This document shows positions 1,995-19,371 of a DNA stretch of 64,000 nt, one piece after another (position 1 is the stretch's first letter; the number at the start of each line of letters is the position of its first letter). The stretch is from Naegleria gruberi (lineage: Eukaryota). The notes beneath the pieces were generated by a model, which did not search any database, was not told the origin of the DNA, and saw only the letters and a program-made list of their open reading frames with translations. The stretch lies in assembly GCA_000004985.1 (NCBI GenBank), contig GG738876.1. One strand, 5' to 3'. Both the position numbers and the translations under genes were made by a program.

Positions 1995-4900
1995 ATGTCA
2001 CTACTCAATGCCAGTGATTTTTCTGATGGAATTCCTTCGCCGATTCATACACCAAAATCTAACAAGGAGATAGTCTTTCCGAATGGTGATTCTGGTATGC
2101 TAACGCCTCTTCAAGATGATTCGAATGTACTTTCAGAAGATTCGAATAATATTTCTTCTTCAAATTCTTCACCTTCTATTGCTATTATCAAGAATGGATC
2201 ACATGAAGAGGATTTAAAAGATGATATCAAGATTTATTCATCATCACCTGTTCCTGCACTTGCCCTGTCAAAATTAATGAAAAATCATCAGGAAGAATCT
2301 ATCCGAAACATTTCCAATAATTATCCAAATAATAATAACAATAACAACACTCTTCAAACAACACCAAACAGTAGCCGAAGTACTCATTCCACTCTCTCAA
2401 ATGGTTCTTCCACCATCATGATGGGAAATACTTCACAAAGAACACTTTCTCCCATTTATCATTCTCTTCACAATGCTTCGTCTACCTATTCGAATGTTAA
2501 TCACAGTCAGCAGCATAATTTAAACTCGAGTCGTTCCAACAATTCTTCGTCAGGTTCAAGATTTCTTTCACCCCAAACTCCAAGAAGATTTAATCATTAT
2601 CCAATGTATCGATCAACTTCGACACCAATCATTTCTCCAAGGTACAATCCACAAATGGTTTCTCCACGTGTCATGATGAATACAAGTTTACATAGTGGAT
2701 TAAACTCTGCTAGATCGAATAGAATGATTTCCATGCAGCAACAACAGTTCAATTCATCAGCAGCAGCAGCAGCATCAGCAGACGAAACTTCATTGAGTGA
2801 AATAGTGCAGATGAGTATTGATGAGGAAGGTACTTATCCTTCATTTGGATTCTTATTGGATACGTTGTGTGAGAGACAGTTTGATAGAGTTGTGAAGGGA
2901 GTTCACACAATTATCGATGATTCTGAGAGGGAAATTGAACAATTGAAAATGTGGATTGAAAAGAATGTGGAAGAAATTGATTATCTGAATCAAGTGAAAG
3001 ATAGTTTAATGGTTCAGTATCAGGAATTAACGAGAGAGATGGATAGAGAAAGACAAACTCTATTGATTAAGAGTAAGGAGAATGAAAATCTCAAATTTGA
3101 GCTGGAAATGAAGAGTATGGAAATTAAGAATGTTGAAAGACAGTTAATGACCAATAAGAATCAAAATTCTGAATTGAATGATAGAATTGAACAAGTGGAA
3201 AAGGAACTAAAGCAAAAAGAAAGACAAATTAATTCCACAAATAATAATTTAATCGAATCAGAGGAGAAATTGAAATCCAAATTGAATGAAATCTCCTCAC
3301 TGAATAACAAGATTGAAATGTACACTTTAGAAACGAGCGAACTCAAACTTGCAAAGGAAAAGTTAGAGAAACAAATTGAAACTCTGAGAAATGAGGTCAA
3401 AACTCTCAAGAGTAATAATGAAGGATACGTGACAATTATCGATCAACAAAACAAGACAATCAATAGAGTTAATGCCAATCTGAAAGAGAAGCAATCAGAG
3501 CTGGAAGAAAAAGATAATGAAAAACAAGATTTATACAATCAAATGGTCATTCTCAAGAGAAATTTCACAGAGAAGGAAAATTCATTGGTTGACTCTCAAA
3601 GTGATTTGGTCAAAATGAAGAGAAAGTTTGAAGATCAGGCACGAGAATTTGAATCATATCGACAAGAGATGAAACAGGAAATGGAAAAGTATCACACCCT
3701 TGTTTCTGATCATCAACAATCAAAGATGAATGAATTAGAAAAGGATCAAGTATTGAAAAAGCATGCAACACTGTTGGAACAATTTGAAGCTTTGCAATTG
3801 AAACATAACAGTTCAGTGTATGATTTACATGAAACCAGACGTGAAAGTCAAGAATATCAAAGAACAAACGAATCCCAAAAGAAGGACATTGAGAAATTGT
3901 TAAAGAGAATTAAGGAACAGGACGATGAAAAATTACAACTCGAAGAGAGGATCAAATGGTTAGAGAGTAACTCTCTCGAGCAAAAGAGCTCCATATCCAA
4001 ACTTCATAAGGAAAATGAAGAGCTCGAGAGTACCGTGTATGGCCTGAAAAAGGATATCAAGATAAGAGAACAAGTATTGGCAGATAAGGATAATGAAATT
4101 TCGCAAAAGGAAAAGGAAATTCAACTCTCCACTGATATTGCCAAAGAAAAAGATTTGGAAATTGAAAAATCTCAAGAAAAGAACCTTTCTCTCCAAAAGC
4201 AAATCGAGCAACTTGATACACAAGTCAAACAATTAACTGGTGATGTTTCAGATCTGAATGAAGAATGTGAAATGTTGAGAAAATATATTTCAGAAGAGAA
4301 GAGTTTCATTCTAGAATCAGATCCAACTCTCAAATTAGTATTACTCATGAAGCAAGAAGGTTTCCCAATTGATGAGTCATACGTTGATAAAATTAGAGGA
4401 AGAAGCATATTCAATTTATTGAGAATGGGAGTTGGTGCTTACAATGTTAGAGTTGGAGATGATGGAAATGGACAAATTGATAGTGAGAGAAGAAAGGAAG
4501 AAACCTTCTTTGCTGAAAAGGCACTCTCTAAATGGTTGCAAAATTTACTTCCTGAAGATTACAATCCTGAACAGAATTTGTATGAAAATATTGCTGATGG
4601 TTTCATGTTGTGTAGAATGATCGATACATTATTTAAGGAAGTTCAGCCTTGCGATCATATTAGAGTAGATAATGCTCTTATTAGAAATCAAAGATCAGAT
4701 TCTGATAACTTGGCAGTTTATTTGGATTATTGTAAAAAGTTAGAATTGAAGAGCTATTTTGAACCTGATATGCTATTCAAAGTTAAAGAAGCCTTTCATG
4801 GTATTCCATCTCTAGCACAAGATTCCATGATAATGGCAAGAGAAAGAGCCTTGATTGTTTCTAATATTGCACAAATATTCGAATTGAATATTAAATGCAA

Positions 4901-5696
4901 CATGTCACCAAGAAAGAAAGAAGAAATACTCGGAAAACTTTTTAATGCAAAACTGGAAAGAGATGCTAATTCACCAATTCTACCAAGATCCAGATCTTCA
5001 TCTGTCAACTCATCTAGAAGTGGTGGTATACGTCCATCAAAAAGAAATAGCATTGCCTTAACTAACTTTTCTATAGCTGTTTCTCCTTCACCACGTATGA
5101 ATGAGGGAATTACACCAAAATCAGCTCGATTTGCAAAAGACATGTTTGAATCTCCAACGATTGGAAACAAAACTCCACCTACTATTCCCTATCTCAAACC
5201 GTTCACATCAAATATGGATTGTCTTTCTCAAGTTTCATCGCCACTCAGTAATGTAACAACTGAGGATGATATTTGGTTGGAACACATGTTAGAAGATATG
5301 AAAATTACACCTTCATCACCTGCAGAATCCAAATTTCAACTCAAATATTATTTGAACAGAGCTGGATCATACTTTGCAAGTGAAGAGCAAAGAGATGAAT
5401 TCATGTCACTTTTGAGAACATTCAAGTTTTTACAAATTGATTTATCAGATTGTCAAAAGTTTGTCAATGAGAAGGAGATTGTTGAAATATTGACAAGATT
5501 GTGTGAAAATAGACATGCATTAAGATTGGATCTGAGTGGATATTGTCTAAAGCCTTACATTAGTCTTGTTGAAAAGTATCTTGCATCTAAAACAGCCATC
5601 AAATATTTGATAATGAAAGACTGTGGATTTAGTGAGGAAGAAAAATCTTCATTGAAACGAGTTGCAAAGACCTTTGACATTTTGACAGATCTGTAA
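1995..5696 (+). CDS. Large coiled-coil protein (1233 aa) with an N-terminal Ser/Asn-rich low-complexity region, a long central coiled coil and a C-terminal calponin-homology (CH)-like domain
   Basis: Uninterrupted ORF with AAAAAAATG start context. Heptad-rich E/K/Q/L segment at roughly aa 300-760. The segment WLQNLLPEDYNPEQNLYENIADGFMLCRMIDTLF...AVYLDYCKKLEL...ALIVSNIAQIFEL matches the CH-domain pattern. Confidence 0.75.
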   Translation: MSLLNASDFSDGIPSPIHTPKSNKEIVFPNGDSGMLTPLQDDSNVLSEDSNNISSSNSSPSIAIIKNGSHEEDLKDDIKIYSSSPVPALALSKLMKNHQEESIRNISNNYPNNNNNNNTLQTTPNSSRSTHSTLSNGSSTIMMGNTSQRTLSPIYHSLHNASSTYSNVNHSQQHNLNSSRSNNSSSGSRFLSPQTPRRFNHYPMYRSTSTPIISPRYNPQMVSPRVMMNTSLHSGLNSARSNRMISMQQQQFNSSAAAAASADETSLSEIVQMSIDEEGTYPSFGFLLDTLCERQFDRVVKGVHTIIDDSEREIEQLKMWIEKNVEEIDYLNQVKDSLMVQYQELTREMDRERQTLLIKSKENENLKFELEMKSMEIKNVERQLMTNKNQNSELNDRIEQVEKELKQKERQINSTNNNLIESEEKLKSKLNEISSLNNKIEMYTLETSELKLAKEKLEKQIETLRNEVKTLKSNNEGYVTIIDQQNKTINRVNANLKEKQSELEEKDNEKQDLYNQMVILKRNFTEKENSLVDSQSDLVKMKRKFEDQAREFESYRQEMKQEMEKYHTLVSDHQQSKMNELEKDQVLKKHATLLEQFEALQLKHNSSVYDLHETRRESQEYQRTNESQKKDIEKLLKRIKEQDDEKLQLEERIKWLESNSLEQKSSISKLHKENEELESTVYGLKKDIKIREQVLADKDNEISQKEKEIQLSTDIAKEKDLEIEKSQEKNLSLQKQIEQLDTQVKQLTGDVSDLNEECEMLRKYISEEKSFILESDPTLKLVLLMKQEGFPIDESYVDKIRGRSIFNLLRMGVGAYNVRVGDDGNGQIDSERRKEETFFAEKALSKWLQNLLPEDYNPEQNLYENIADGFMLCRMIDTLFKEVQPCDHIRVDNALIRNQRSDSDNLAVYLDYCKKLELKSYFEPDMLFKVKEAFHGIPSLAQDSMIMARERALIVSNIAQIFELNIKCNMSPRKKEEILGKLFNAKLERDANSPILPRSRSSSVNSSRSGGIRPSKRNSIALTNFSIAVSPSPRMNEGITPKSARFAKDMFESPTIGNKTPPTIPYLKPFTSNMDCLSQVSSPLSNVTTEDDIWLEHMLEDMKITPSSPAESKFQLKYYLNRAGSYFASEEQRDEFMSLLRTFKFLQIDLSDCQKFVNEKEIVEILTRLCENRHALRLDLSGYCLKPYISLVEKYLASKTAIKYLIMKDCGFSEEEKSSLKRVAKTFDILTDL

Positions 5697-8179: not shown

Positions 8180-8613
8180 CACACATGATGATAAATGTTC
8201 AATTAATCACAATTTTAATGATGAAAAAAACAAACCCTTCTTTGAAGATCTTGTTGCAGGCATTTTTTTGGCGGTAATTGTTCTTACCCATTTCCTCTAA
8301 AAGCTGGAAACATAAAAATATTCCAAATACACTTTTCAGCCTTGGTTATTCCGTAACTTGAAGAGCCTAACAAAATTGGATTGAATTTTATTGTCTTGTT
8401 CATTATCAAATTAAGCAAATTTCAAACTCAGCATGTACAATTAATCGAAAATAAAACTAAAATATTCTCAAGTGTGATGAGTGCTTGGGAGAATATTTTT
8501 AGGTTTTAAAGAGATCCAAAATTTTATTGTTTAAAAAAAACTTAACACAACAACAACTAGCAGCATTTCGGAACCTTCTATTATCAAGAAGTAAATTTAA
8601 TAATAACAACAAC

Positions 8614-11600
8614 ATGGAAGAAGAGTATCAAAATTCAAATCAAATAGAAGAGGAAGAAGAAGAAGAAACAACTGAACAAATTTTGGAAGAAATCGCCGAA
8701 GGTGATGATATTGATGATGATGATGAATTGTTGCAACAATCATTACTTCCAACAAAGAAACATCACGATATTTCCATCCAATCACTTGACCAAATTAAAC
8801 AAATTATATCTTTTAATCAATATGATTTAATTGATGCTAAAGGAGGTTTAGATTTGGTTATTGTTAATGGCGATCAATTAGTAGCACACTTTTTAAGAGA
8901 CTCCTTCGGAAGAAATGAATCTAATGAAAGTCTTTATAGATTGGATTGGTTAAAACATGGTGGTCAACTTCTTCACCTGACATACCTTGTTGAAACATTC
9001 GTTAAAAACTTGTTGGATCGTGATATGAGAATTGATATTGTCTTTTTTGAAGATATTAGAACAAGTCAATGTATCAAATCATCATTCTTGTTGAATTTGG
9101 CTTATGAAATTCATCAAGATTTAGGAATTTCTTTCCAATCATTAGCTTACAGCTTTTTGGTTGCCAAACAAGCTATTTCATCACAATTGAAGAAAATTTC
9201 CGAGAATTATTCCAAGTCAGATGTTTTTACTGTTACTTTCCTCAACGATACATGGTACAAATCAAGTAATTGGGAAAATCTTATCACAAAGAGAAAACCA
9301 TCATTTATTATTTCAACATTGGCACAAAATTCGATCATTGACGAACTTTTCTGTACAGAGACTGTCCTTGTAAGACAAGTAATTTTGACCTATGATTTAT
9401 GTTTTTACGGAAATACTGTAATTGGTTTCTGTTCAGCTGTTAGAGATAACATGACAAACTCTTACAAATTGAGAGAAGTTGAATTGTTTTTGGAAAAAAA
9501 TTTCTCTGAAGAAAGGTCAGAAAATGTATTCAAATTGACTTCTCAAATTGGGCTTGCAGCTGAAAAACATTTCTCAGAAATTAAATCAAATATTGAGCAA
9601 ATTATTTCAAAGGAGCTCTCGGATTCATCTCTTACCAAAAAGGTTTCTGTGTCAAGTTTAACCCTTTCAGCCATTGCCTCCATTGATTCTCTCTCTGAAC
9701 AAACAACTCCAAATGCATTGGCTCTCTCAAAGATATTTATTCTCACTAATATTATTCAAAACATTATTCCACTCAAAGACAGAGCACAACATATTGAAGA
9801 CGTTTCCTTGGATACATCATTAATCTCATTCCAAGAAAAAATTTTGACATCCCTTTACCACTCTCTCAAGCAAACAAACATTGAAGATAATTTATATGAT
9901 CTTTTGGACTTTAGATTGTTTTTGAAGGTTCTGACTATTTTATTGAGCTCAGGAGTTGCTCAAAAACTTGAAAATAATTCATCAGATGATCACCTTTTAG
10001 CAGAACTTTTACCAAAAGAGCTTCAGAATCTATTTAAATCCTTGGTGTCTCTATTGACAACATCAAAGTCAACCAAGGATGCCTCATGGTGGGAAAAGGT
10101 ATTAAATCCTTTAGTTTCAAAAAGATCAGAAACTGAGGATTACAAACCAAGACATCCTGAGTGTCTTTTAAGAGAGATTCTACCATTAAATCAAGATGTA
10201 ATCAATGGATTGGTATCTGGCGTAAATATTACTCTTCCTCACAAATCTGAAAAGATAATTACTGAACAAGCTCCTGTTAAAGAAGAACCTAAACCAGAAA
10301 TTGTAGAAGAAGCACAAGATGGATTGGAAGATTGGGAAAAGGAAGACTGGCTTCAGGAAGAACAAGTTGAGGAAGTTGTCGAAGTTAAAGAAGAACAAGA
10401 AATACTCACAGAAGAAGAAGCTAAGGAACTCAGTTTTGAAAGATGTTTCCCTGTGAGAGAACAAGAAGTCAACTATTCCCAAAAGAAGGACGTCGAAGAA
10501 CAAATTCCAAACGATTTTTCTGGACCAAAGAGTGAATGGGAAAAGATCAAGGTACAAGAAGCTCAAAAGAGATTGCACAGATACTCCGAATCAATGAGGG
10601 CTTTATCCGATAAGAAGGTTATTGAAAATGCTAAATCATCAGGTGTTGTAGCTGAAGAAGTCAAACCTGTCGAACAAACAAAGGGTGGAAAACCAGCTAA
10701 ACCTAATAAGAAGGAAGAAAAACAAGCAACTCCAGCTGCATCAGCAGCTCCTTCAACAAAGGTTAGATTGATGATGATTGAATCTAACACAAAGAAACGT
10801 GAAAAGGAAATTAATGAACTTACTGGAAAATTGTCTGAATACCAACAAAAATTCAGCGAATATAACAATAAGGCCGACGAATTGAAAGAACACGGAGGAA
10901 AGATTGAACAATATGAATCATTGACCAAATTATTGTTGGAAGGTATTTTCAAGGATATTAGACTTGTACAAAATATTCAAGCTACTGAAGGTGGTAGCTC
11001 TGCAAATAAGAAGAGTGCCAGTAGTAGTTCTGAAAGTTTCACAGCTGCTACTTTGTTACTAGAACAAAGAACAACTTGTGAAAATTTGTGGGTTCAACTT
11101 TCTATCCTCAGGCTTCAATTTATGACAAGAAAGTTGTTACTTGAAAGACAAGATCTTCAAACCTCTTTGAGAAGAACTCAATCATCTGCTCCAAAGAAGG
11201 GCGTTAAATTCCTTAGTTTTGACGAAGAGCCATCCGAAGACTCCAAAGAAAAGAAAGACGATAAGAAGAAAGGTGCCCTCAAGGAAGCAAACCCTAATGC
11301 AATTCCACAAATTGACAACTTGTCTGGAGGTGCTGACTTGGATTTATCTTTGTACTGGGAGCCTTTTGAACTTACCAATAGGATCTACGAAATTGTTACA
11401 CAATTGATTAATGATTCCTACATTTCAGAATTGTCTGTGGCAACATCAGCATCCCAAGAAAAGGATAAAAAACCAACAAAGGCTGCTGCCAAAAAGCCTG
11501 CAAAGGGGGACAAGAAGGGTGAAAAAGTTAAACCAATCTCAAAGATTGATCTCAAAGATGTCATTCAAACCTTGATCAATTTCATGTGTGATTTGGGCTT

Positions 11601-14600
11601 TGTTAAATTTGCAAGCAGAATTTCTGAAAAATTCAATCAAGGAGAAATTACTTTTGGTTCTCTTATCAAGGATAATTTGATGCAACAATTAGAAGTTGAA
11701 TCTCTTCCTGCTGAAACTGTCAATGTTAAAGATTCTGTCAACGATAAGCCTGAATCAGCTGAATTCCAACTTCTCTATAACAATGCAATTATTGATTCTG
11801 CCACAAATATTGAAATTCCTCCAGCTGAAATTCCAGAGACTGTAACCATTGACTCTAAGGGAGCCAAGCCAAAGGGACATCCTAAGAAGGAAAAGCCTTC
11901 TCGTACCAGAAAGGATGAAAAGGCAACAACAGAAGAAGAATCAACAACAGATGAACCTTCTACACCTATTTCTCAAAATTATGTTATACCAACGGCTAAA
12001 TCTCTTGGTTTCACACCAGATCCTTGGCAAGAGAATATGATTTTATCAATTTTACAAAATAAGTCAATCCTGGTTAGTGCTCCAACCAGTTCTGGTAAGA
12101 CATTTATTGCATTCTTTGCCATGGAAAAGGTTTTGAGGGAATCTGATGATTCTATCATTGTTTATTGCTGTCCAACAAAGGCCTTGGTAAATCAAGCTTA
12201 TGCTGAAGTTTATAGTAGATTCCAAAAGGTTTACAACAATACTTCACCTTATGGTGTTTCCAGTATGTTGGGAATGTACACTGCTGACGAAAAGATTAAC
12301 GTAACTACATGTCAAGTACTCGTCACTGTTCCACAATCTTTAGAACATTTGATGACCAGTCCAGAAAATCTAGAATGGAAGAGAAGAATGAAGTACATCA
12401 TCCTCGACGAAATTCACTGTATCAACGAATCATCATCCAGTGGTCAAGTTTGGGAACATGTTTTGAGTCTTCTTGAATGTCCATTTATTGCCCTCAGTGC
12501 CTCTATTGGTAATCCAAAGGAATTCGCAGATTGGTTGAATGAAAATTACAACAAGGAAATTGTAAGCCACATCACTTACTTGAACGATCAACAACAAGGT
12601 GTAGACTTGGTTGTTCACGACGAAAGACCTCGTCCATTAGAATTCTATAACTATGATAGTTCTGCAGATAGATTCACCGAAATCCATCCAATGGCCACAC
12701 TTAATCCAAATTCTATTGATACTGTTTCTTTCTCATTGATTCAAAACTTCTCTCCTCTCCAATGTCTTACTCTTTTCAAGGTTGCTACAGCAATCAAAAC
12801 CTCATTCAAGGAGCAAGGAAAGCCAATCTCTACTGCTATTGAAAAATTCTTGGCTACTTTCAATCCAGATTCATACTTTAATAACTTTGGACTTTTCAAG
12901 AGACAACAATTCTCTAGTTATGGCAAGACTATGAAGGAAGAATTAATCAAACTCTCAACTGAAACTGAGAATCATGAATTCTTGTTAGGTATTATTAGAA
13001 CCTTGTTGAAGGATGTTAGTTTAAGTTTTGACAACATGGAAGGAGATTACAAGTCTCAACAATCAATTTCAGACAATGTTTCTGAATCGGATGCTGCTTC
13101 TACTACATCTAGTAAGGTTATTTCTAGACACAAGTTCGGTTCAGATGGTTGGTTGAAGGACAATATTATTCAATTGGTTACTAGATTGGCAGAAGAAAAG
13201 CTAACTCCTTCAATCTTCTTTAGCTTTGATAGAACTATGTGTGATTATTTACTCAAAAAGATTTCCACCCATCTCCGTACAGCCCGTGCCAATTCACAAC
13301 TTGGTAACTATTTCCATCTCTATTCATCTAGCTTGGAAAAGGTTAGATCTGAAAAGGAAATTCGTTACAGTTTACAAAGTATTGAACAATTCGGAACTAA
13401 AATTCCAATCGAACTTAAGGAAGGTTTAGAAGTTGGTGTTGCTGTCCATCACCACAGTTGCCCAAGTGAATATCTCACTGAAGTTGAAAGACTTTTCAGA
13501 TTGAGATGTTTACCTGTTGTCATTTCTACTTCTACTTTAGCTCTTGGTATTCACATGCCTTGTAAGACTGTAGTCATGGTTGGTCACTCAATTTACTTGA
13601 CCACGACAATGTTCCAACAATGTGCTGGTCGTTCTGGTCGTAGAGGTTACGATGTCAAGGGTAGAGTTGTTCTCTATGGTATTCCTCAAGTTACAGCCAA
13701 CAGATTGCTCTCTGGTGTTACTCCAAAGATCAAGGGTGCTATGGGTTTAAGAGCTAATTTCTTGTTAAAGATGCTTACTCTCCTCAATAGGGCTAAATCC
13801 GATGACACCAAATATCAAATTGTAGCTGACGATCTTTCTCGTTTGGTAAACAAGAAGATTTTCTATCTTGGACAAATTTTGGAAAATTCTGAACTCCAAA
13901 ACAAATTGTGCTTTAGATTTATTTTAGACTTTTTGAGAAGAAACAATTACATTCAAGAAGATGGTACTTTGGGAGAGTTCTCCTTGCTCGCCAATAGTCT
14001 TTTCTATTATGAACCAGCTAATTTCTTATTCATTCATTTGTTAAAGACTGGCGCCATCAACACTTATTTGCAAAAGTGGAAAGATGTTTTGGACGAATCA
14101 TCAATGAGACCTGAAGAAAAGGTTGAATTATTAGGTGAAAAATTATTAATCTTGTTGAACTTGCTTTTCGAAGCCAGAAAATTATCTCATTGGGATCTTT
14201 CTCCATACAAATTGGAAAATTATTATTCCAATGACACTTTGGAAATTATTACCAGTGGTAAGGCTGCTCTTAATAGCAAGACAGATATTTCCTCAGAAAA
14301 TGTCTTATCTCAATTGAATGACTACAATAGAATTGTTCTCAAGGAATTTGCAACATTTGTAGTATCTTATTGCAAGAATTATCAAAAGGAAACTGTTGAT
14401 AATGTTCTTCCATTATCTAATATTGCCTTCCCTCATGAAGAAAGCTATCTCGAACAACTTTATCAAGAATCCAGTCTCTGCAAGTCTCTCAATGAAAGTA
14501 AGCTCAAGTATTATGGTACTAGCAGCTTTGTTGCTATCAGTGGTAATGATGACATGTTTACTAGTGTTTCTCAATTACTCAATTGCCGTAATCAGAATGT

Positions 14601-15054
14601 AATTTTGGATGTATCATTGTTGCCATATCTTGACCTTGTAGAAAAGATTTCTCAAAAGGCTAGTTTGTCCCTCAGCTCATATGCTGTTGAATTCTTGAGA
14701 AATGGTCAAAAGAGACAAGTATCAACTGATTGCGACTTCCCTTCACTTTCTCTTTGCTTCAATTCTCTTAAGAATGTTGATAGAGTTTTAGGTCAAGCTC
14801 TTTACAATATCCATTTGTTCATGAATATTAAGAATGGTGCAAACAATGATTTATTCCTCTCTACTCTTACCAAATTACGTACCAGATTCCATGACCGTGT
14901 CACTGGAGGTAAGAAGACAAGAAAAAAGCTCAAGATGTTGAAGACTATCAATGTAGAAATGGACGATTTGGAAATGGTAAACTCCAAAGGAAAATTGAAA
15001 AATGTATCCAAATCTACAAAGAAAGACTCAGTAACCAAAGATCCATCACTGTAA
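8614..15054 (+). CDS. Large superfamily-2 DExH-box helicase, Ski2-like and DDX60-like (~2146 aa from ATG 8614; ORF open from 8527). It has a long N-terminal non-catalytic region plus a C-terminal helicase core.
   Basis: Helicase motifs: motif I LVSAPTSSGKTF, motif II ILDEIHCIN (DEIH), motif III SASIGN, motif VI QCAGRSGRRGYD. The N-terminus is acidic/low complexity with K/E-rich linkers. Confidence 0.85.
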   Translation: MEEEYQNSNQIEEEEEEETTEQILEEIAEGDDIDDDDELLQQSLLPTKKHHDISIQSLDQIKQIISFNQYDLIDAKGGLDLVIVNGDQLVAHFLRDSFGRNESNESLYRLDWLKHGGQLLHLTYLVETFVKNLLDRDMRIDIVFFEDIRTSQCIKSSFLLNLAYEIHQDLGISFQSLAYSFLVAKQAISSQLKKISENYSKSDVFTVTFLNDTWYKSSNWENLITKRKPSFIISTLAQNSIIDELFCTETVLVRQVILTYDLCFYGNTVIGFCSAVRDNMTNSYKLREVELFLEKNFSEERSENVFKLTSQIGLAAEKHFSEIKSNIEQIISKELSDSSLTKKVSVSSLTLSAIASIDSLSEQTTPNALALSKIFILTNIIQNIIPLKDRAQHIEDVSLDTSLISFQEKILTSLYHSLKQTNIEDNLYDLLDFRLFLKVLTILLSSGVAQKLENNSSDDHLLAELLPKELQNLFKSLVSLLTTSKSTKDASWWEKVLNPLVSKRSETEDYKPRHPECLLREILPLNQDVINGLVSGVNITLPHKSEKIITEQAPVKEEPKPEIVEEAQDGLEDWEKEDWLQEEQVEEVVEVKEEQEILTEEEAKELSFERCFPVREQEVNYSQKKDVEEQIPNDFSGPKSEWEKIKVQEAQKRLHRYSESMRALSDKKVIENAKSSGVVAEEVKPVEQTKGGKPAKPNKKEEKQATPAASAAPSTKVRLMMIESNTKKREKEINELTGKLSEYQQKFSEYNNKADELKEHGGKIEQYESLTKLLLEGIFKDIRLVQNIQATEGGSSANKKSASSSSESFTAATLLLEQRTTCENLWVQLSILRLQFMTRKLLLERQDLQTSLRRTQSSAPKKGVKFLSFDEEPSEDSKEKKDDKKKGALKEANPNAIPQIDNLSGGADLDLSLYWEPFELTNRIYEIVTQLINDSYISELSVATSASQEKDKKPTKAAAKKPAKGDKKGEKVKPISKIDLKDVIQTLINFMCDLGFVKFASRISEKFNQGEITFGSLIKDNLMQQLEVESLPAETVNVKDSVNDKPESAEFQLLYNNAIIDSATNIEIPPAEIPETVTIDSKGAKPKGHPKKEKPSRTRKDEKATTEEESTTDEPSTPISQNYVIPTAKSLGFTPDPWQENMILSILQNKSILVSAPTSSGKTFIAFFAMEKVLRESDDSIIVYCCPTKALVNQAYAEVYSRFQKVYNNTSPYGVSSMLGMYTADEKINVTTCQVLVTVPQSLEHLMTSPENLEWKRRMKYIILDEIHCINESSSSGQVWEHVLSLLECPFIALSASIGNPKEFADWLNENYNKEIVSHITYLNDQQQGVDLVVHDERPRPLEFYNYDSSADRFTEIHPMATLNPNSIDTVSFSLIQNFSPLQCLTLFKVATAIKTSFKEQGKPISTAIEKFLATFNPDSYFNNFGLFKRQQFSSYGKTMKEELIKLSTETENHEFLLGIIRTLLKDVSLSFDNMEGDYKSQQSISDNVSESDAASTTSSKVISRHKFGSDGWLKDNIIQLVTRLAEEKLTPSIFFSFDRTMCDYLLKKISTHLRTARANSQLGNYFHLYSSSLEKVRSEKEIRYSLQSIEQFGTKIPIELKEGLEVGVAVHHHSCPSEYLTEVERLFRLRCLPVVISTSTLALGIHMPCKTVVMVGHSIYLTTTMFQQCAGRSGRRGYDVKGRVVLYGIPQVTANRLLSGVTPKIKGAMGLRANFLLKMLTLLNRAKSDDTKYQIVADDLSRLVNKKIFYLGQILENSELQNKLCFRFILDFLRRNNYIQEDGTLGEFSLLANSLFYYEPANFLFIHLLKTGAINTYLQKWKDVLDESSMRPEEKVELLGEKLLILLNLLFEARKLSHWDLSPYKLENYYSNDTLEIITSGKAALNSKTDISSENVLSQLNDYNRIVLKEFATFVVSYCKNYQKETVDNVLPLSNIAFPHEESYLEQLYQESSLCKSLNESKLKYYGTSSFVAISGNDDMFTSVSQLLNCRNQNVILDVSLLPYLDLVEKISQKASLSLSSYAVEFLRNGQKRQVSTDCDFPSLSLCFNSLKNVDRVLGQALYNIHLFMNIKNGANNDLFLSTLTKLRTRFHDRVTGGKKTRKKLKMLKTINVEMDDLEMVNSKGKLKNVSKSTKKDSVTKDPSL

Positions 15055-15135: not shown

Positions 15136-17127
15136 TTATAATAAATAATTGGAAAAGTAATTATCTAAATCGTGAGCCAAAGTTTGAATGGAAGTTTCAA
15201 GATTTTGACCAGTTTTTGCACTACATTCGAAAAATTTGACTGCATCAATCCTGTCACAATCATCTACAGAAGAAATTGAATTTCCTGTTAGACTGTTATC
15301 CTCAAAACTTGCTGCAACATTGGTATTTGAAAGAGCCCCAAGATCATTCTTGAATGATTTCAATTCATTATTAGATTTGTCATCAAAAACATTAGCAACC
15401 TTTTGAGGTATGGTGGTTGGAGAAGGAGATGATGAGATGGCATTCAAAATACTTCTGTTCATAGCTCTTGCAAACTCAAGACCTTGAATAAAGTCAACAC
15501 TTCGTTCACAGTCAAGATCAGTCTTATTTCCAAGTAAAACAATTTTAACATGTGGTAGATAGTGGTTCTTAATTAATTGAGGAAGCACTTGAGTGTTCCA
15601 TAATTGCTTCAGCCTTTCAAAGCTAGAAACTGAATTGATAGAATAAACACAGATAATACATTGAATATCTTTCAAGTATTCTCTGAAAAGTGATTCTTCC
15701 TGATAACTACTGAATCCCATATCCCAAAATTGAAGTTGAATTTTGTGTTTGTTAGTGAACAAAATACTTCCTTGTGGACTTGTGGATGTCATGTGAGGAG
15801 AAGCTGCCGTCAAGCTATTAGCTTGTGTTTTTGCTGTATGATCAATAAATCTGGTTGTAAACTCCAAACCAACTGTTCTTCTTGTTGAACTAGAGAATGT
15901 ATTTCCTTCAAATCTTGACAGACATGAACTTTTACCAACTTCTCCATCTCCAATAAAAACAACTTTAAAAAGTAATGTTGTATCTGAGTCAACTTGATTC
16001 TTTGAATTTGATTTTGATGTTTTCACCTTATTCACTTTAGGCAAATTGTTTGGAATAGCAAACCAAGAATTTGTACCAGAGCTCAAATCCAAACTATTAG
16101 GTGGAAGTGTACTAGATTTTTCCTTTTGTGGATGCTTTCTAATAGTACCAGTTTCTTGTTGAATCTTGGCAAATTGTTGAACAGAATCCAATGATTCATC
16201 TTCATCAGAAATGTCCATATCTTCCTCTTCAGATTCATCAGATTCTTCCAATTTAACAATCAAGTTACTGGATGATGGCTTTTTAAAATCAGAGATTTGT
16301 TGTTTCTTTGAATCAATCACTGGCTTTTTTTCATTAAAACTCAACATTGAAGTGCTCGAAGTAACCTCTAAATGGCTTGGTTGTTGATATTCTGAGAGTG
16401 TCCTTCTTGATGCTCCTTGCTTTCTCTTCATTGACTCCATATGTTGTTTAATTTGTTGCTGTTGTAAACTTAATGTCAACAATGAAGGAGATGAAGGAAC
16501 ATGATGATGGTGATGTCCATGACTACTCGTACTATTGCTTGATACTAAAGACCCCAGTGCTGGATTAATTCCTTTCATAATACTAGAATATTTCACAGCT
16601 GATGAATAGGATGAATTAGCAAGGGATGATATTTTCAATGATTCTAAGTCACCATTCGTTGGATGATTTAGAGAAACATGATGATTGGATGGATGTTGAT
16701 CATCGGAATCATGTTCCATCTCAGCTGTATTGACAATATCCTCGTAATAATAGTAATTTGTTCTTGGACTATTACTTGGTGAATTTTCAAACGAAGCTGC
16801 TAATTCGTCTTGTCTTGACTTTGAAAACTTTCTGGTTAAACTCTTCTTTGAACGATTCTTCTTCTTTCTCTTTTGATTCTTCTTTGGAGAGGTCGGATCA
16901 TGATCCTCTTCAGAGCTACTATGTACGGAATGTTGATTCCGAAGACTTGATGTTACTGATGCTACAGTATTGCTATTGGTTTTTCCATGTAAACTAATGT
17001 TAATAGATTCTAGGGTTGTATTTTGTAAATTAGAGTTTGATATTGAATGACGTTCCTCATCATCCTCCAGTGGATGATTCGTATGATGATCATCTACAGT
17101 ATCAGCAGAAGAGCAACACAATCCCAT
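15136..17127 (-). CDS. Atypical Rab-like small GTPase (663 aa) with a long N-terminal Ser/His-rich low-complexity extension. Its N-terminal MGLCCSS motif is a candidate myristoylation/palmitoylation site and it has no C-terminal prenylation cysteines.
   Basis: G1 GDGEVGKS, Rab-type switch I TVGLEFTTRF, G4 GNKTD and G5 ECSAKTG are present. G3/switch II is degenerate (WDMGFSSYQEE instead of WDTAGQE). The C-terminus ends NYFSNYLL without a CC/CXC motif. True ATG at 17125..17127. Confidence 0.8.
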   Translation of the reverse strand: MGLCCSSADTVDDHHTNHPLEDDEERHSISNSNLQNTTLESINISLHGKTNSNTVASVTSSLRNQHSVHSSSEEDHDPTSPKKNQKRKKKNRSKKSLTRKFSKSRQDELAASFENSPSNSPRTNYYYYEDIVNTAEMEHDSDDQHPSNHHVSLNHPTNGDLESLKISSLANSSYSSAVKYSSIMKGINPALGSLVSSNSTSSHGHHHHHVPSSPSLLTLSLQQQQIKQHMESMKRKQGASRRTLSEYQQPSHLEVTSSTSMLSFNEKKPVIDSKKQQISDFKKPSSSNLIVKLEESDESEEEDMDISDEDESLDSVQQFAKIQQETGTIRKHPQKEKSSTLPPNSLDLSSGTNSWFAIPNNLPKVNKVKTSKSNSKNQVDSDTTLLFKVVFIGDGEVGKSSCLSRFEGNTFSSSTRRTVGLEFTTRFIDHTAKTQANSLTAASPHMTSTSPQGSILFTNKHKIQLQFWDMGFSSYQEESLFREYLKDIQCIICVYSINSVSSFERLKQLWNTQVLPQLIKNHYLPHVKIVLLGNKTDLDCERSVDFIQGLEFARAMNRSILNAISSSPSPTTIPQKVANVFDDKSNNELKSFKNDLGALSNTNVAASFEDNSLTGNSISSVDDCDRIDAVKFFECSAKTGQNLETSIQTLAHDLDNYFSNYLL

Positions 17128-18308
17128 TATAATGTTGTTGTTATTATATGATGATGATGATATTTAAATTACACTATATTCAAGAAGCTTAATTATTACT
17201 AATATTATTATTATTATTATACATATGAGTTATTGTTGTTAATGATTATATTATATACAAATTATTAATAATAATTTCAAAATATTGAGAGAAATTATTC
17301 TTCTTCTCTTTCAAATTGTTATGAAAATTCCAATCAATTTTTGGACCACCAACAAGTAAAACTACCACACGTGTTGATATATAATTGCAATAGGTCTCTC
17401 AAGAGTTTTCTAAAGCAAATAATAAATTGTGTCGTCGTCGTAACTTTTTGTATTTTCCACCGAGGTGCAACAAATAGGGAAACGTGTTGAAAAAGTAGGT
17501 TTTTTCCTTTGCAATTTGTTTCAAACAAATGGGTATCTTCTTTGAGAACAAATAAAGAAATATAACTGTAAATTGCAGAAGAGAAGCGACCACAAATAGA
17601 ATTGAAACAGTTGTGCAAGAGGAATGTTTGAAACAATGTGCAGTACACTGTAATGATGATACTGATCGGTTGCTGTTGGTCGATGATAATAAAAAACCAA
17701 ATCAAAATGAAGGTGTGATGCAATCAATAGTGGTCGTTGAGTGTCAAGTCAATCGGAGCTTCCTAGGCAGAGCTCCTTTATGCACTTTTTTTATTGTGAT
17801 TGGGGAAGTACTCCTTCCAATATGAATGTGAGAAATTAACGTGTAAATGCTCTTTTTAGTGAAGGAGCAAATCGGTATCTTATTGTGTGAATTAGTGAGA
17901 AATTGGAATTGAGGTAATAGATTTTAGCTGAATGAGTGATACGTGTCCATCCACACTTAATGTCTTCCAATTAGAAAGGCACTAAGAACATGAAATATTT
18001 CTTCTTCGGCCGATGCTACTCCTGAATTATTGCATCCTATCCTACTCCCAAAGTTCTTCCACCAATTAATAATATAAAATTAATACGCAACACCATGGCT
18101 TTAGGAATCTTAAATATGTTCATGGTATTTACAATGATTTTTGGATCCAGGATTTCGAAACTCGTACCGTATCATCATCACCATATTATTAATATTAATA
18201 TTGAAAATTACTAAATGGAAAATTATTAAAATTAATTTTGGCAATTTAAAAAAAATTTTCTCAACACTTGGATAGGAGAGGATTTTTTGTATTATTCGGA
18301 ACAATCAT

Positions 18309-19371
18309 TATGTTTGAAAATATTGATTCTGGTTTATTAACAGCTGGATTTCTTGCTGGTACAACCCTCTTGTTGGGTTATTTGATGGGTAAATCTGATG
18401 ATAATAGTAGTGAAATTAAGAAATCAATGACAAAGGAGGAAATTGAAGATATGCTTTCAAAAGCTACCAAGGAAATTGAATCCGGATTGGTTGGAGCTTC
18501 CGATAAAACAACACAAAAGTTGAATGCTCTCAAGCAACTTGTAAAATGTGTTTATGATCTTTATGATATTAGTTACACTGAAAGCTTACCAATTAATCAA
18601 GGAGTTGATTGTGAATGTGCATATGGTTTTAAACGTGAGGAATTTAAAGATCCACAAGACAAACTTGTTGGTAGAATTACACCACATAATTCATTATTAT
18701 TATTCTTAACAAATGTTCGTGCTACTGAATGGGAAGCAAATGCTGAAGAAACTCAATTCCCAATGATTGGTAAGGCAACAACTCTTTTAAAGAAGAAGAA
18801 GATAAAAATCAGTATTGCTGAAGCTTATGATGGAGAAAAGATTGAAGGAAATACATTTATCATGATACCTGAACAAATCAAATTTACAAATGTTGTAGAT
18901 GAAGTTGAATTGGAAAAGCTTGTAACATTTGCAATGAGTGGACAAACTAGCAGTGCAGAAGTTGATGTATCTAAAATAGAGAGAAATGTTAAACAAAGTA
19001 CTATTATGATTTGTTGTCACCATCAAAGAGATCAAAGATGTGGATATTGTGGACCAAGATTATATGAAGCTTTCCGTGATTTCTGTATTCAAAATCAAAT
19101 TGATATTGTTTTAAGAAGAGTTAACCATTTAGGAGGACACAAATATGCTGGAAACGTTGTCATTGTTTACCAAAATAAGAAAATGCAAAAATTACCATGG
19201 TTTGTTGATTGGTACGGATATGTAGATTTGAAGGATGTAGAAAGATTAATGTATGCCCATTTTGATTTCACAGAAAATCCTCAACCTTCATACAGAGTTG
19301 TTAAGGATTTATGGAAAGGTAGACCATCAATGAATAAGGATATGTTTGAAAAGTTTTTAATGATGCAATAG
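18309..19371 (+). CDS. Sucrase/ferredoxin-like (Apd1/Aim32 family) thioredoxin-like [2Fe-2S] protein with an N-terminal hydrophobic anchor
   Basis: Motif MICCHHQRDQRCGYCGPRLY...VNHLGGHKYAGNVVIVYQ matches the C-x-H...R-C-G...H-x-G-G-H-K-x-A-G-N signature of the Suc_Fer-like family. The ATG is at 18309; the track start at 18268 is a TTG. Confidence 0.7.

Follow-up and report, generated by a model that had tools for sequence, protein, structure and literature searches.

Three mechanistic traits define the Rab GTPases: geranylgeranylation of the C-terminus, membrane cycling mediated by GDI, and a timer based on GTP hydrolysis. Their C-terminus normally comprises a hypervariable domain and a geranylgeranylation cysteine motif (XXXCC, XXCXC and the like) (PMC5902227). 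The closest described systems to the one reported here are ARA6 (RabF1), of plants and green algae, and the alveolate Rab5B, in which a Rab G domain is likewise combined with an N-terminal MGxxxS-type motif and a nearby cysteine, with no C-terminal geranylgeranylation motif (PMC5869587; PMC3912013); an acyl motif without a geranylgeranylation motif implies attachment via the N-terminus, in a mode that requires neither REP nor GDI. Dual acylation is described for the ARA6-type paralogues of Rab5 (PMC5869587), and the Plasmodium protein PfRab5B, devoid of the C-terminal motif, is myristoylated on Gly2 (PMC3912013), a precedent for acyl-type motifs being functional on Rabs. Here we describe a Rab-like gene of Naegleria gruberi, located on the minus strand at positions 15136 to 17127 of a 64,000-nucleotide stretch of contig GG738876.1 (assembly GCA_000004985.1), the whole of which is called the window below. 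We are practically certain that it encodes a genuine, conserved, tail-less protein of the Rab family. Its sequence also makes it likely, in our judgement, that this divergent Rab reaches the membrane via its N-terminus and has lost both the C-terminal tail and the catalytic glutamine. The features on which the argument turns are the following, in the order of the protein after the gene itself:

15136..17127, minus strand, complete single-exon coding sequence of the Rab-like GTPase, 663 amino acids (aa) plus stop
17107..17127, minus strand, MGLCCSS, residues 1-7, with predicted N-myristoylation of Gly2 and S-palmitoylation of Cys4 and Cys5
15139..15987, minus strand, Rab-like G domain, residues 381-663 (Pfam Ras, AlphaFold2 core, Foldseek)
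15928..15951, minus strand, G1 (P-loop) GDGEVGKS, residues 393-400, intact
15847..15876, minus strand, switch I, RabF1-like, TVGLEFTTRF, residues 418-427, holding Thr418 and Phe423
15748..15837, minus strand, insert 1, residues 431-460, in the beta2-beta3 (interswitch) hairpin
15694..15723, minus strand, degenerate G3 (switch II) DMGFSSYQEE, residues 469-478
15517..15531, minus strand, G4 GNKTD, residues 533-537, guanine-specificity motif, intact
15247..15429, minus strand, insert 2, residues 567-627, between alpha4 and beta6
15214..15228, minus strand, G5 ECSAK, residues 634-638, intact
15139..15180, minus strand, C-terminus LAHDLDNYFSNYLL, residues 650-663, from the alignment with named Rabs

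The gene is real and conserved, and its features lie far beyond chance. Its 663 codons contain no internal stop. The frame is closed by a stop 13 codons 5' of the ATG, and no other start codon lies in that interval; the open reading frames (ORFs) of the opposite strand are all of 79 aa or less, and a convergent helicase gene follows the stop codon at a distance of only 81 bp. A preliminary description, made from the letters of the DNA, had claimed that 15136-17127 codes for a GTPase, and the uninterrupted 663-aa frame bears this out; its allusion to Amoebozoa was mistaken, as the product is identical over its full length (100%) to XP_002675776.1 / EFC43032.1 ("small GTPase [Naegleria gruberi]"), of Heterolobosea. 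Orthologues were identified in N. fowleri (742 aa), N. lovaniensis (735 aa), an environmental Naegleria (650 aa) and Willaertia magna (621 aa), and the ORF is uninterrupted in 5 of 5 genes (four Naegleria including N. gruberi, one Willaertia). The gene is single-copy, and the order Suc_Fer-like gene, GTPase gene, DDX60-like helicase gene (convergent, ~2170 aa) is kept in four Naegleria. The ratio of nonsynonymous to synonymous substitution rates (dN/dS), estimated by the Nei-Gojobori method for the unsaturated pair N. fowleri and N. lovaniensis, is 0.008-0.043 in the core segments of the G domain, 0.027 in insert 1, 0.154 in insert 2 and 0.119 in the N-terminal extension. These low values imply that both inserts and the extension are translated and under selection.

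The evidence for an unusual membrane anchor lies at the two ends of the protein. MGLCCS is invariant in the five orthologues, the ~40 residues that follow being divergent, and Cys4 and Cys5 are the only cysteines in the first 400 residues of the N. gruberi protein. A PROSITE-type N-myristoylation pattern, G-{EDRKHPFYW}-x2-[STAGCN]-{P}, is present at Gly2 together with a cysteine within residues 3-7 in all 10 family N-termini, whereas N-terminal motif and cysteine occur together in only 3 of 284 other Rab-type proteins, taken as controls. At the other end, a cysteine within the last six residues is found in none of nine complete family members, against 250 of the 284 other proteins. The N. gruberi sequence ends in ...DLDNYFSNYLL, stopping at alpha5, ~13 residues past the last residue of the core helix; the Rab hypervariable domain is absent, and there is no cysteine after residue 635. 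No transmembrane segment was detected in the protein, which has no hydrophobic stretch long enough to span a membrane. Acylation of the N-terminus, with no prenylation site, had been proposed in the preliminary description and is upheld in silico. It had also correctly reported the lack of a C-terminal cysteine, but this account was incomplete, as alignment with named Rabs shows the whole hypervariable tail to be gone. Taken together, the two termini make it very likely that the N. gruberi protein is N-acylated.

The body of the protein belongs to the Rab family. Pfam Ras (PF00071) is matched with 93.1 bits (cut-off 21.6, E=1.8e-26), the inserts splitting the match into three stretches, against only 29.7 bits for Pfam Arf. 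All of the 60 best matches in a sequence search of the PDB are Rab/Ypt/Sec4 proteins. The AlphaFold2 (AF2) model of residues 340-663 has a predicted local distance difference test (pLDDT) score above 90 in the core and below ~55 in both inserts, and a Foldseek comparison of this fold with the PDB returned Rab/Ypt/Sec4 structures for 50 of the 50 best matches (Rab8, 10, 6, 1, 4 and 11 among them), with TM(target) of 0.83-0.90. GDGEVGKS, the Mg-binding Thr418 of switch I, NKTD (534-537) and SAK (636-638) are invariant across the five orthologues. So is the Rab hydrophobic triad F423/W468/Y484, whose first member lies in switch I and whose positions align with invariant or nearly invariant columns of 60 Rabs; this triad is a conserved part of the Rab effector surface (PMC5902227). 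By alignment, with no formal scorer, three RabF-like motifs can be recognised, namely VGLEF (against IGVDF), QLQFW (against KLQIW) and CVYSIN (against LVYDIT), which correspond to RabF1, RabF2 and RabF5; RabF3 (RFRSIT) is missing and RabF4 (YYRGA) is reduced to Y484. The consensus sequences used for this comparison are reportedly those of Pereira-Leal and Seabra. On the same alignment judgement, the protein has the one or more RabF motifs by which Rabifier assigns a protein to the Rab family (PMC3192815).

A re-annotation of the Naegleria Ras superfamily (Herman et al. 2021, BMC Biol, PMC8296547) also lists XP_002675776.1 as a Rab (Table S8) and names the N. fowleri orthologue, NfowleriV212_g4517.t1, RabX19, a "divergent lineage-specific paralog". 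The N. gruberi gene is thus a catalogued entry among the Naegleria RabX paralogues, by name only. In the supplements of that paper "myristoyl" does not occur and "palmitoyl", "acylat" and "prenylat" are never applied to the product of this gene, and we found no published account of its lipidation or of its switch II. The same survey describes expanded F-box/CaaX Rab-like subgroups (PMC8296547), from which our single-copy, syntenic gene differs. The Rab-like character proposed in the preliminary description is thus confirmed by the Pfam, PDB and Foldseek matches, the invariant triad and the curated survey. The profile search it had called for matched Ras, the best sequence and fold matches all lie within the Rab family, and the switch I, G1, G4 and G5 motifs it had recognised are all present (at 418-427, 393-400, 533-537 and 634-638).

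An N-terminal myristoyl and/or palmitoyl anchor without a C-terminal lipid, as predicted here, is also the arrangement of the Arf/Arl and G-alpha proteins. The G domain of the Naegleria protein is, unlike theirs, of the Rab type (Ras 93 against Arf 29.7 bits, with fold matches that are all Rabs), and a disordered tether of ~375 residues takes the place of the Arf-style amphipathic N-terminal helix adjoining the G domain.

The second anomaly of the protein is its G3 motif, in which Asp469 is retained, the DxxG glycine is shifted by one position, the catalytic glutamine is absent and one residue is added. Neither the DxxG nor the catalytic glutamine by which G3 is recognised in the Ras superfamily is thus found in its place. 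The position of DTAGQ is occupied by D[MT]G[FYH] in the five orthologues, as WDMG(F/Y) in Naegleria and as WDTGH followed by a further insertion of 8 residues in Willaertia, whereas WDxxGQ is present in 260 of the 284 control proteins. The switch II had been described as degenerate from the first, and its conservation across orthologues speaks for this and against an error of sequencing or annotation. GTPase-deficient small GTPases without this glutamine are represented by the Rnd proteins and RhoH and, among the Rabs, by Rab24 and Rab25. In these, as in the Naegleria protein, the glutamine is replaced and the nucleotide motifs are kept; they retain, however, the DxxG glycine and the length of switch II and are C-terminally prenylated, whereas in Naegleria the glycine is displaced, the length is variable and the anchor is N-terminal. 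The shift of the glycine and the varying length of switch II suggest that the change goes beyond the replacement of the glutamine. With no glutamine in cis and this glycine out of place, intrinsic hydrolysis and the switch II transition would be weak or lost, and we lean towards a strong impairment of GTP hydrolysis.

Two inserts further distinguish the G domain. Insert 1 is disordered (pLDDT 46-56), carries an invariant AASP motif and is lacking in named Rabs and in the compact family member described below. Insert 2, of 61 residues, is equally disordered (pLDDT 40-55), is specific to Naegleria and Willaertia and has a conserved DNSLT.NS.SS.DDCDR stretch. The preliminary description had rightly placed an insert before beta-3, but gave it ~35 residues where we count about 30 (431-460), and it overlooked the second (567-627).

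The gene is not strictly confined to Naegleria, having counterparts in Willaertia and environmental relatives. When 1.84 billion representative proteins were searched exhaustively with a profile, scores fell sharply after the orthologues, and the next matches were mostly tandem-Rab fusion gene models (P0007-P0011, P0013-14 and others), which were rejected as relatives. The genuine environmental relatives are four: P0153/P0015 (305 aa), P0024 (375 aa), P0028 (a fragment) and a compact member encoded by the following gene:

L007 1437-2263, plus strand, compact member gene with two introns of 86 and 87 nt and GTACGT donors, spliced product 217 aa

The deposited model P0012 reads through these introns, so that it shows a spurious "insert" and lacks the exon with MGLCWSS. 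The N-termini of the relatives read MGC(L/V/A)(F/W)S or MGLCWSS. All four share an acidic FSEL(S/A/D)(D/E/S)(D/E) motif and P-x-NLP(K) shortly before the G domain, and they end in (D/E)LxxYFxxY right after alpha5, without cysteine. Inserts are lacking in the 217-aa member, whose spacing is that of a canonical Rab and whose G3 reads WDAAGQ; WDAAGE is found in P0153, P0024 and P0028. In P0155 (L008), a relative of P0153, the frame stays open 5' of MGCLFS through a (CA)n/(TA)n microsatellite, translated as THTHTHTHTYIYIY, which accounts for N-terminally extended models (330 and 365 aa) in which the acylation motif is hidden. A family-profile homologue search, saturated by matches to Rab37/26/8, yielded no further members, and a scan of JGI metagenomes returned 80 loci, with ordinary prenylated Rabs in 76 of the 78 ORFs that were complete.

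The eight family sequences come out as monophyletic (98% of 200 bootstrap replicates) in a neighbour-joining tree of 77 taxa and 185 columns, in which Naegleria and Willaertia group together (100%) and the environmental sequences form a subclade (88%). The insert-free core of the N. gruberi protein has 39% identity (129 bits) with the compact member, against at most 35% and 92 bits with named Rabs, the nearest of which are Rab39B, Rab8A and Rab37. Rab5/Ypt5 references are among the most distant, with 66-78 bits against the N. gruberi core and 96-105 bits against the compact member (Rab8A 154). Pairwise scores and tree thus rule out a Rab5/ARA6 kinship, and it follows that the clade is independent of ARA6 and of Plasmodium Rab5B. 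ARA6 and Rab5B are Rab5 paralogues with a canonical DTAGQE and short leaders, whereas the Naegleria protein belongs to a clade of its own, carries a tether of ~375 residues, contains two inserts and has a degenerate G3; the arrest of the clade's proteins right after alpha5 also sets them apart. From the sequences, N-acylation in the Naegleria clade looks like an independent, convergent origin. In evolutionary terms we read the Naegleria/Willaertia protein as a long, derived branch of a small clade of tail-less, putatively N-acylated Rab-like proteins. As the compact member still has WDAAGQ, the acyl anchor probably preceded the loss of the catalytic glutamine.

Outside this clade, the three control proteins with the N-terminal motif and cysteine (P0116, P0144 and P0250, all environmental and of the Rab type) combine a canonical WDTAGQERF with MG(A/N/C)C-type N-termini. 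P0250, Rab7-like by eye, and P0144, the C-terminus of which may be mis-predicted, have no C-terminal cysteine motif, and P0116, Rab11-like by eye, has a single cysteine six residues before its end. Since these three are unrelated to the clade, they suggest that N-terminal acylation seems to have taken the place of prenylation several times among protist Rabs.

The atypical G3 and C-terminus could in principle be artefacts of the gene model, introns restoring WDTAGQE and a C-terminal CC/CXC motif, or signs of a decaying paralogue or pseudogene, birth-and-death and disrupted copies being known from some divergent Naegleria Rab-like subgroups (Herman et al., PMC8296547). Between positions 13500 and 17600 of the window, however, a DxxG[QLSE]-like motif is absent from all six frames. 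Nor does the canonical motif reappear after any of the 15 in-frame GT..AG excisions that are possible in the region of insert 1 and switch II, none of which has a consensus donor. A hidden intron restoring DTAGQ is thereby ruled out, and the intron that the preliminary description had named as fatal to its own proposal did not materialise. The inserts are not retained introns either, given the codon-level purifying selection on them and the ORFs intact in five species. With only 81 bp to the next gene and a single, syntenic copy, this explanation is effectively refuted and we give it hardly any credence. A different doubt concerns the lipids themselves: MGLCCS might be unlipidated, or palmitoylated only, and the protein soluble or recruited to membranes by partners or by a polybasic patch, for which the stretch at residues 82-95 would offer a candidate. 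We hold this to be very doubtful. The first six residues are invariant, MG[CL]C is kept in distant members with unrelated following sequence, the motif co-occurs with the complete loss of the prenylated tail, and the same motif type is a proven N-myristoyltransferase substrate on PfRab5B (PMC3912013).

More can be said for a protein that is N-acylated and tail-less and yet cycles normally, a TBC dual-finger GTPase-activating protein (GAP) or another residue compensating for the lost glutamine and the altered switch II changing only partner specificity. TBC-domain RabGAPs give Arg and Gln fingers in trans, the Rab's own glutamine staying outside catalysis (PMC5902221); G1, the G2 threonine, Asp469, G4 and G5 are intact and under strong purifying selection, and one family member retains WDAAGQ. 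Yet it is not only the glutamine that is lost, as the DxxG glycine, a contact of the gamma-phosphate, is displaced (D-M-G-F), and a switch II whose length varies (+1 in Naegleria, a further 8 in Willaertia) is a poor fit to a precise geometry; we regard normal cycling as rather unlikely. At the other extreme the protein might be a pseudoGTPase scaffold, with a function free of nucleotide state and possibly of nucleotide binding, the G domain serving as an interaction module on an acylated tether. The degenerate G3, the disappearance of the RabF3/RabF4-type residues of switch II, the large disordered inserts and the long motif-bearing tether would all suit such a role, for which the ArlEM of Microsporidia provides an acylated precedent (PMC13393502). 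It is nevertheless very improbable in view of the P-loop, NKxD, SAK and switch I threonine, invariant in Naegleria and Willaertia, and of a core dN/dS of 0.008-0.04, class-i pseudoGTPases being typically without such nucleotide motifs. We thus prefer a divergent Rab anchored by its N-terminus, with its tail and its catalytic glutamine lost, although several points weigh against this reading or parts of it. The missing cis-glutamine alone is no proof of a dead GTPase, because TBC GAPs supply both fingers. The displaced DxxG glycine might mean that GTP sensing is lost altogether, leaving a scaffold instead of a "GTP-locked" protein. The predicted myristoylation rests on a general PROSITE-type pattern, and the tree is a simple neighbour-joining one on 185 columns. 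Finally, the order in which the anchor comes first rests on parsimony and few sequences, because the environmental relatives are a sister clade (88%) and not a grade.

Under the reading of an N-terminally anchored Rab, Gly2 would be myristoylated co-translationally and Cys4/Cys5 then S-palmitoylated, giving a stable attachment to the membrane that would need neither REP nor Rab geranylgeranyltransferase and would not be reversed by GDI. The disordered tether of ~375 residues would join this anchor to the G domain and carry a polybasic patch, a conserved helix, possibly phosphorylated Ser-rich motifs and the NLPKV element. The G domain would still bind guanine nucleotide and Mg2+ and expose a Rab-type effector surface (switch I and interswitch), while its intrinsic hydrolysis, like its canonical switch II transition, would be weak or gone. 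Such a protein would be GTP-bound for the most part, or else be controlled by other means, such as palmitate turnover, phosphorylation or a GAP with catalytic residues in trans. Its evolution would have begun with the acyl anchor, followed later by the loss of the glutamine (first to WDAAGE, afterwards to WDMGF/WDTGH) and by the gain of the inserts and of the long tether. One might speculate further, and we consider this distinctly unlikely in all its parts, that an undescribed N-acylated clade of its own origin has produced in Naegleria a permanently membrane-bound, hydrolysis-dead "pseudo-switch". There, palmitate turnover and the phosphorylation of tether and inserts would have replaced GAP/GDI cycling as the means of control, with the NLPK strand (perhaps also the SPSLLTLSL helix) docked as an intramolecular pseudo-effector or autoinhibitor.

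The extension that would form the tether has the following mapped parts:

16072..17106, minus strand, Ser/Lys/acidic-rich extension, residues 8-352, predicted to be intrinsically disordered
16429..16491, minus strand, SPSLLTLSLQQQQ motif, residues 213-233, with invariant columns S213-Q225
16021..16071, minus strand, NSWFAIPNNLPKVNKVK, residues 353-369, with the P-x-NLP(K) signature

It is about 375-380 residues long, with 19% serine and 5.8% histidine; the preliminary description had called it Ser/His-rich and ~390 residues in length, which is right for serine, overstated for histidine, which is only mildly enriched, and too long. No Pfam domain was found in residues 1-380 at E<=1, and in the full-length AF2 model pLDDT is below 50 nearly throughout, residues 1-355 being disordered with two exceptions. 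Conserved motifs within it are the polybasic KKNQKRKKKNRSKK (residues 82-95), NSPRxNYYYYED (119-130), YSSAVKYSS (174-182), RRTLSEY (241-247) and an acidic cluster (294-312). The SPSLLTLSLQQQQ region contains the sole predicted helix of the extension (216-233, pLDDT 69-82), and its motif is missing from the compact environmental relatives. Outside the G domain no element is better conserved than P-x-NLP(K), which lies ~20 residues ahead of it and has its P, N, L and P invariant in 8 of 8 family sequences. A short beta-strand (364-366) is predicted in NLPKV in both the full-length and the domain-only AF2 models (pLDDT ~83-86), and it may dock on an edge strand of the G domain. Large Rabs have EF-hand and coiled-coil domains in their extensions and are C-terminally prenylated. 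The Naegleria protein resembles these (Rab44, Rab45/RASEF, CRACR2A) in having a long N-terminal extension followed by the Rab domain, and in large Rabs the extension holds functional domains (PMC5869587); its own extension differs in having no Pfam domain and in being disordered save for one 18-residue helix, and the protein has no prenylation site.

N-acylated Rabs and small GTPases without the glutamine are known already as kinds, and the gene itself is catalogued (RabX19). No earlier description appears to exist of the clade, compact relatives included, of its being independent of Rab5, of the complete loss of the tail, or of a G3 that decays step by step in combination with a long disordered tether. 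To judge from sequence, the clade would have given up geranylgeranylation and GDI cycling, and Naegleria apparently the hydrolysis timer too. On this view N-acylated Rabs would have arisen a second time, independently of the Rab5-derived ARA6/Rab5B group, and the members of the clade would form a natural series for the rewiring of a Rab into a resident membrane protein, from the compact form with Gln, through Glu, to the broken DxxG, tether and inserts of Naegleria. The practical impact is modest, as the gene is catalogued, Naegleria has roughly 90 Rab-like loci and the functions are predicted ones.

The neighbourhood of the gene is composed as follows. The convergent helicase gene (window 8527-15054, plus strand) encodes a DDX60-like protein of ~2175 aa that has DEAD, ResIII and Helicase_C domains and weakly matches PIN-like_DDX60; helicase and GTPase genes are neighbours in four Naegleria species but not in Willaertia. 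The upstream neighbour (18268-19371, plus strand) encodes a Sucrase/ferredoxin-like protein (PF06999) and is syntenic in Naegleria. Farther off lie a gene for a 1233-aa protein with a calponin-homology domain (1995-5696, plus strand) and the sole tRNA gene of the window, a tRNA-Glu with anticodon TTC (58844-58917, plus strand).

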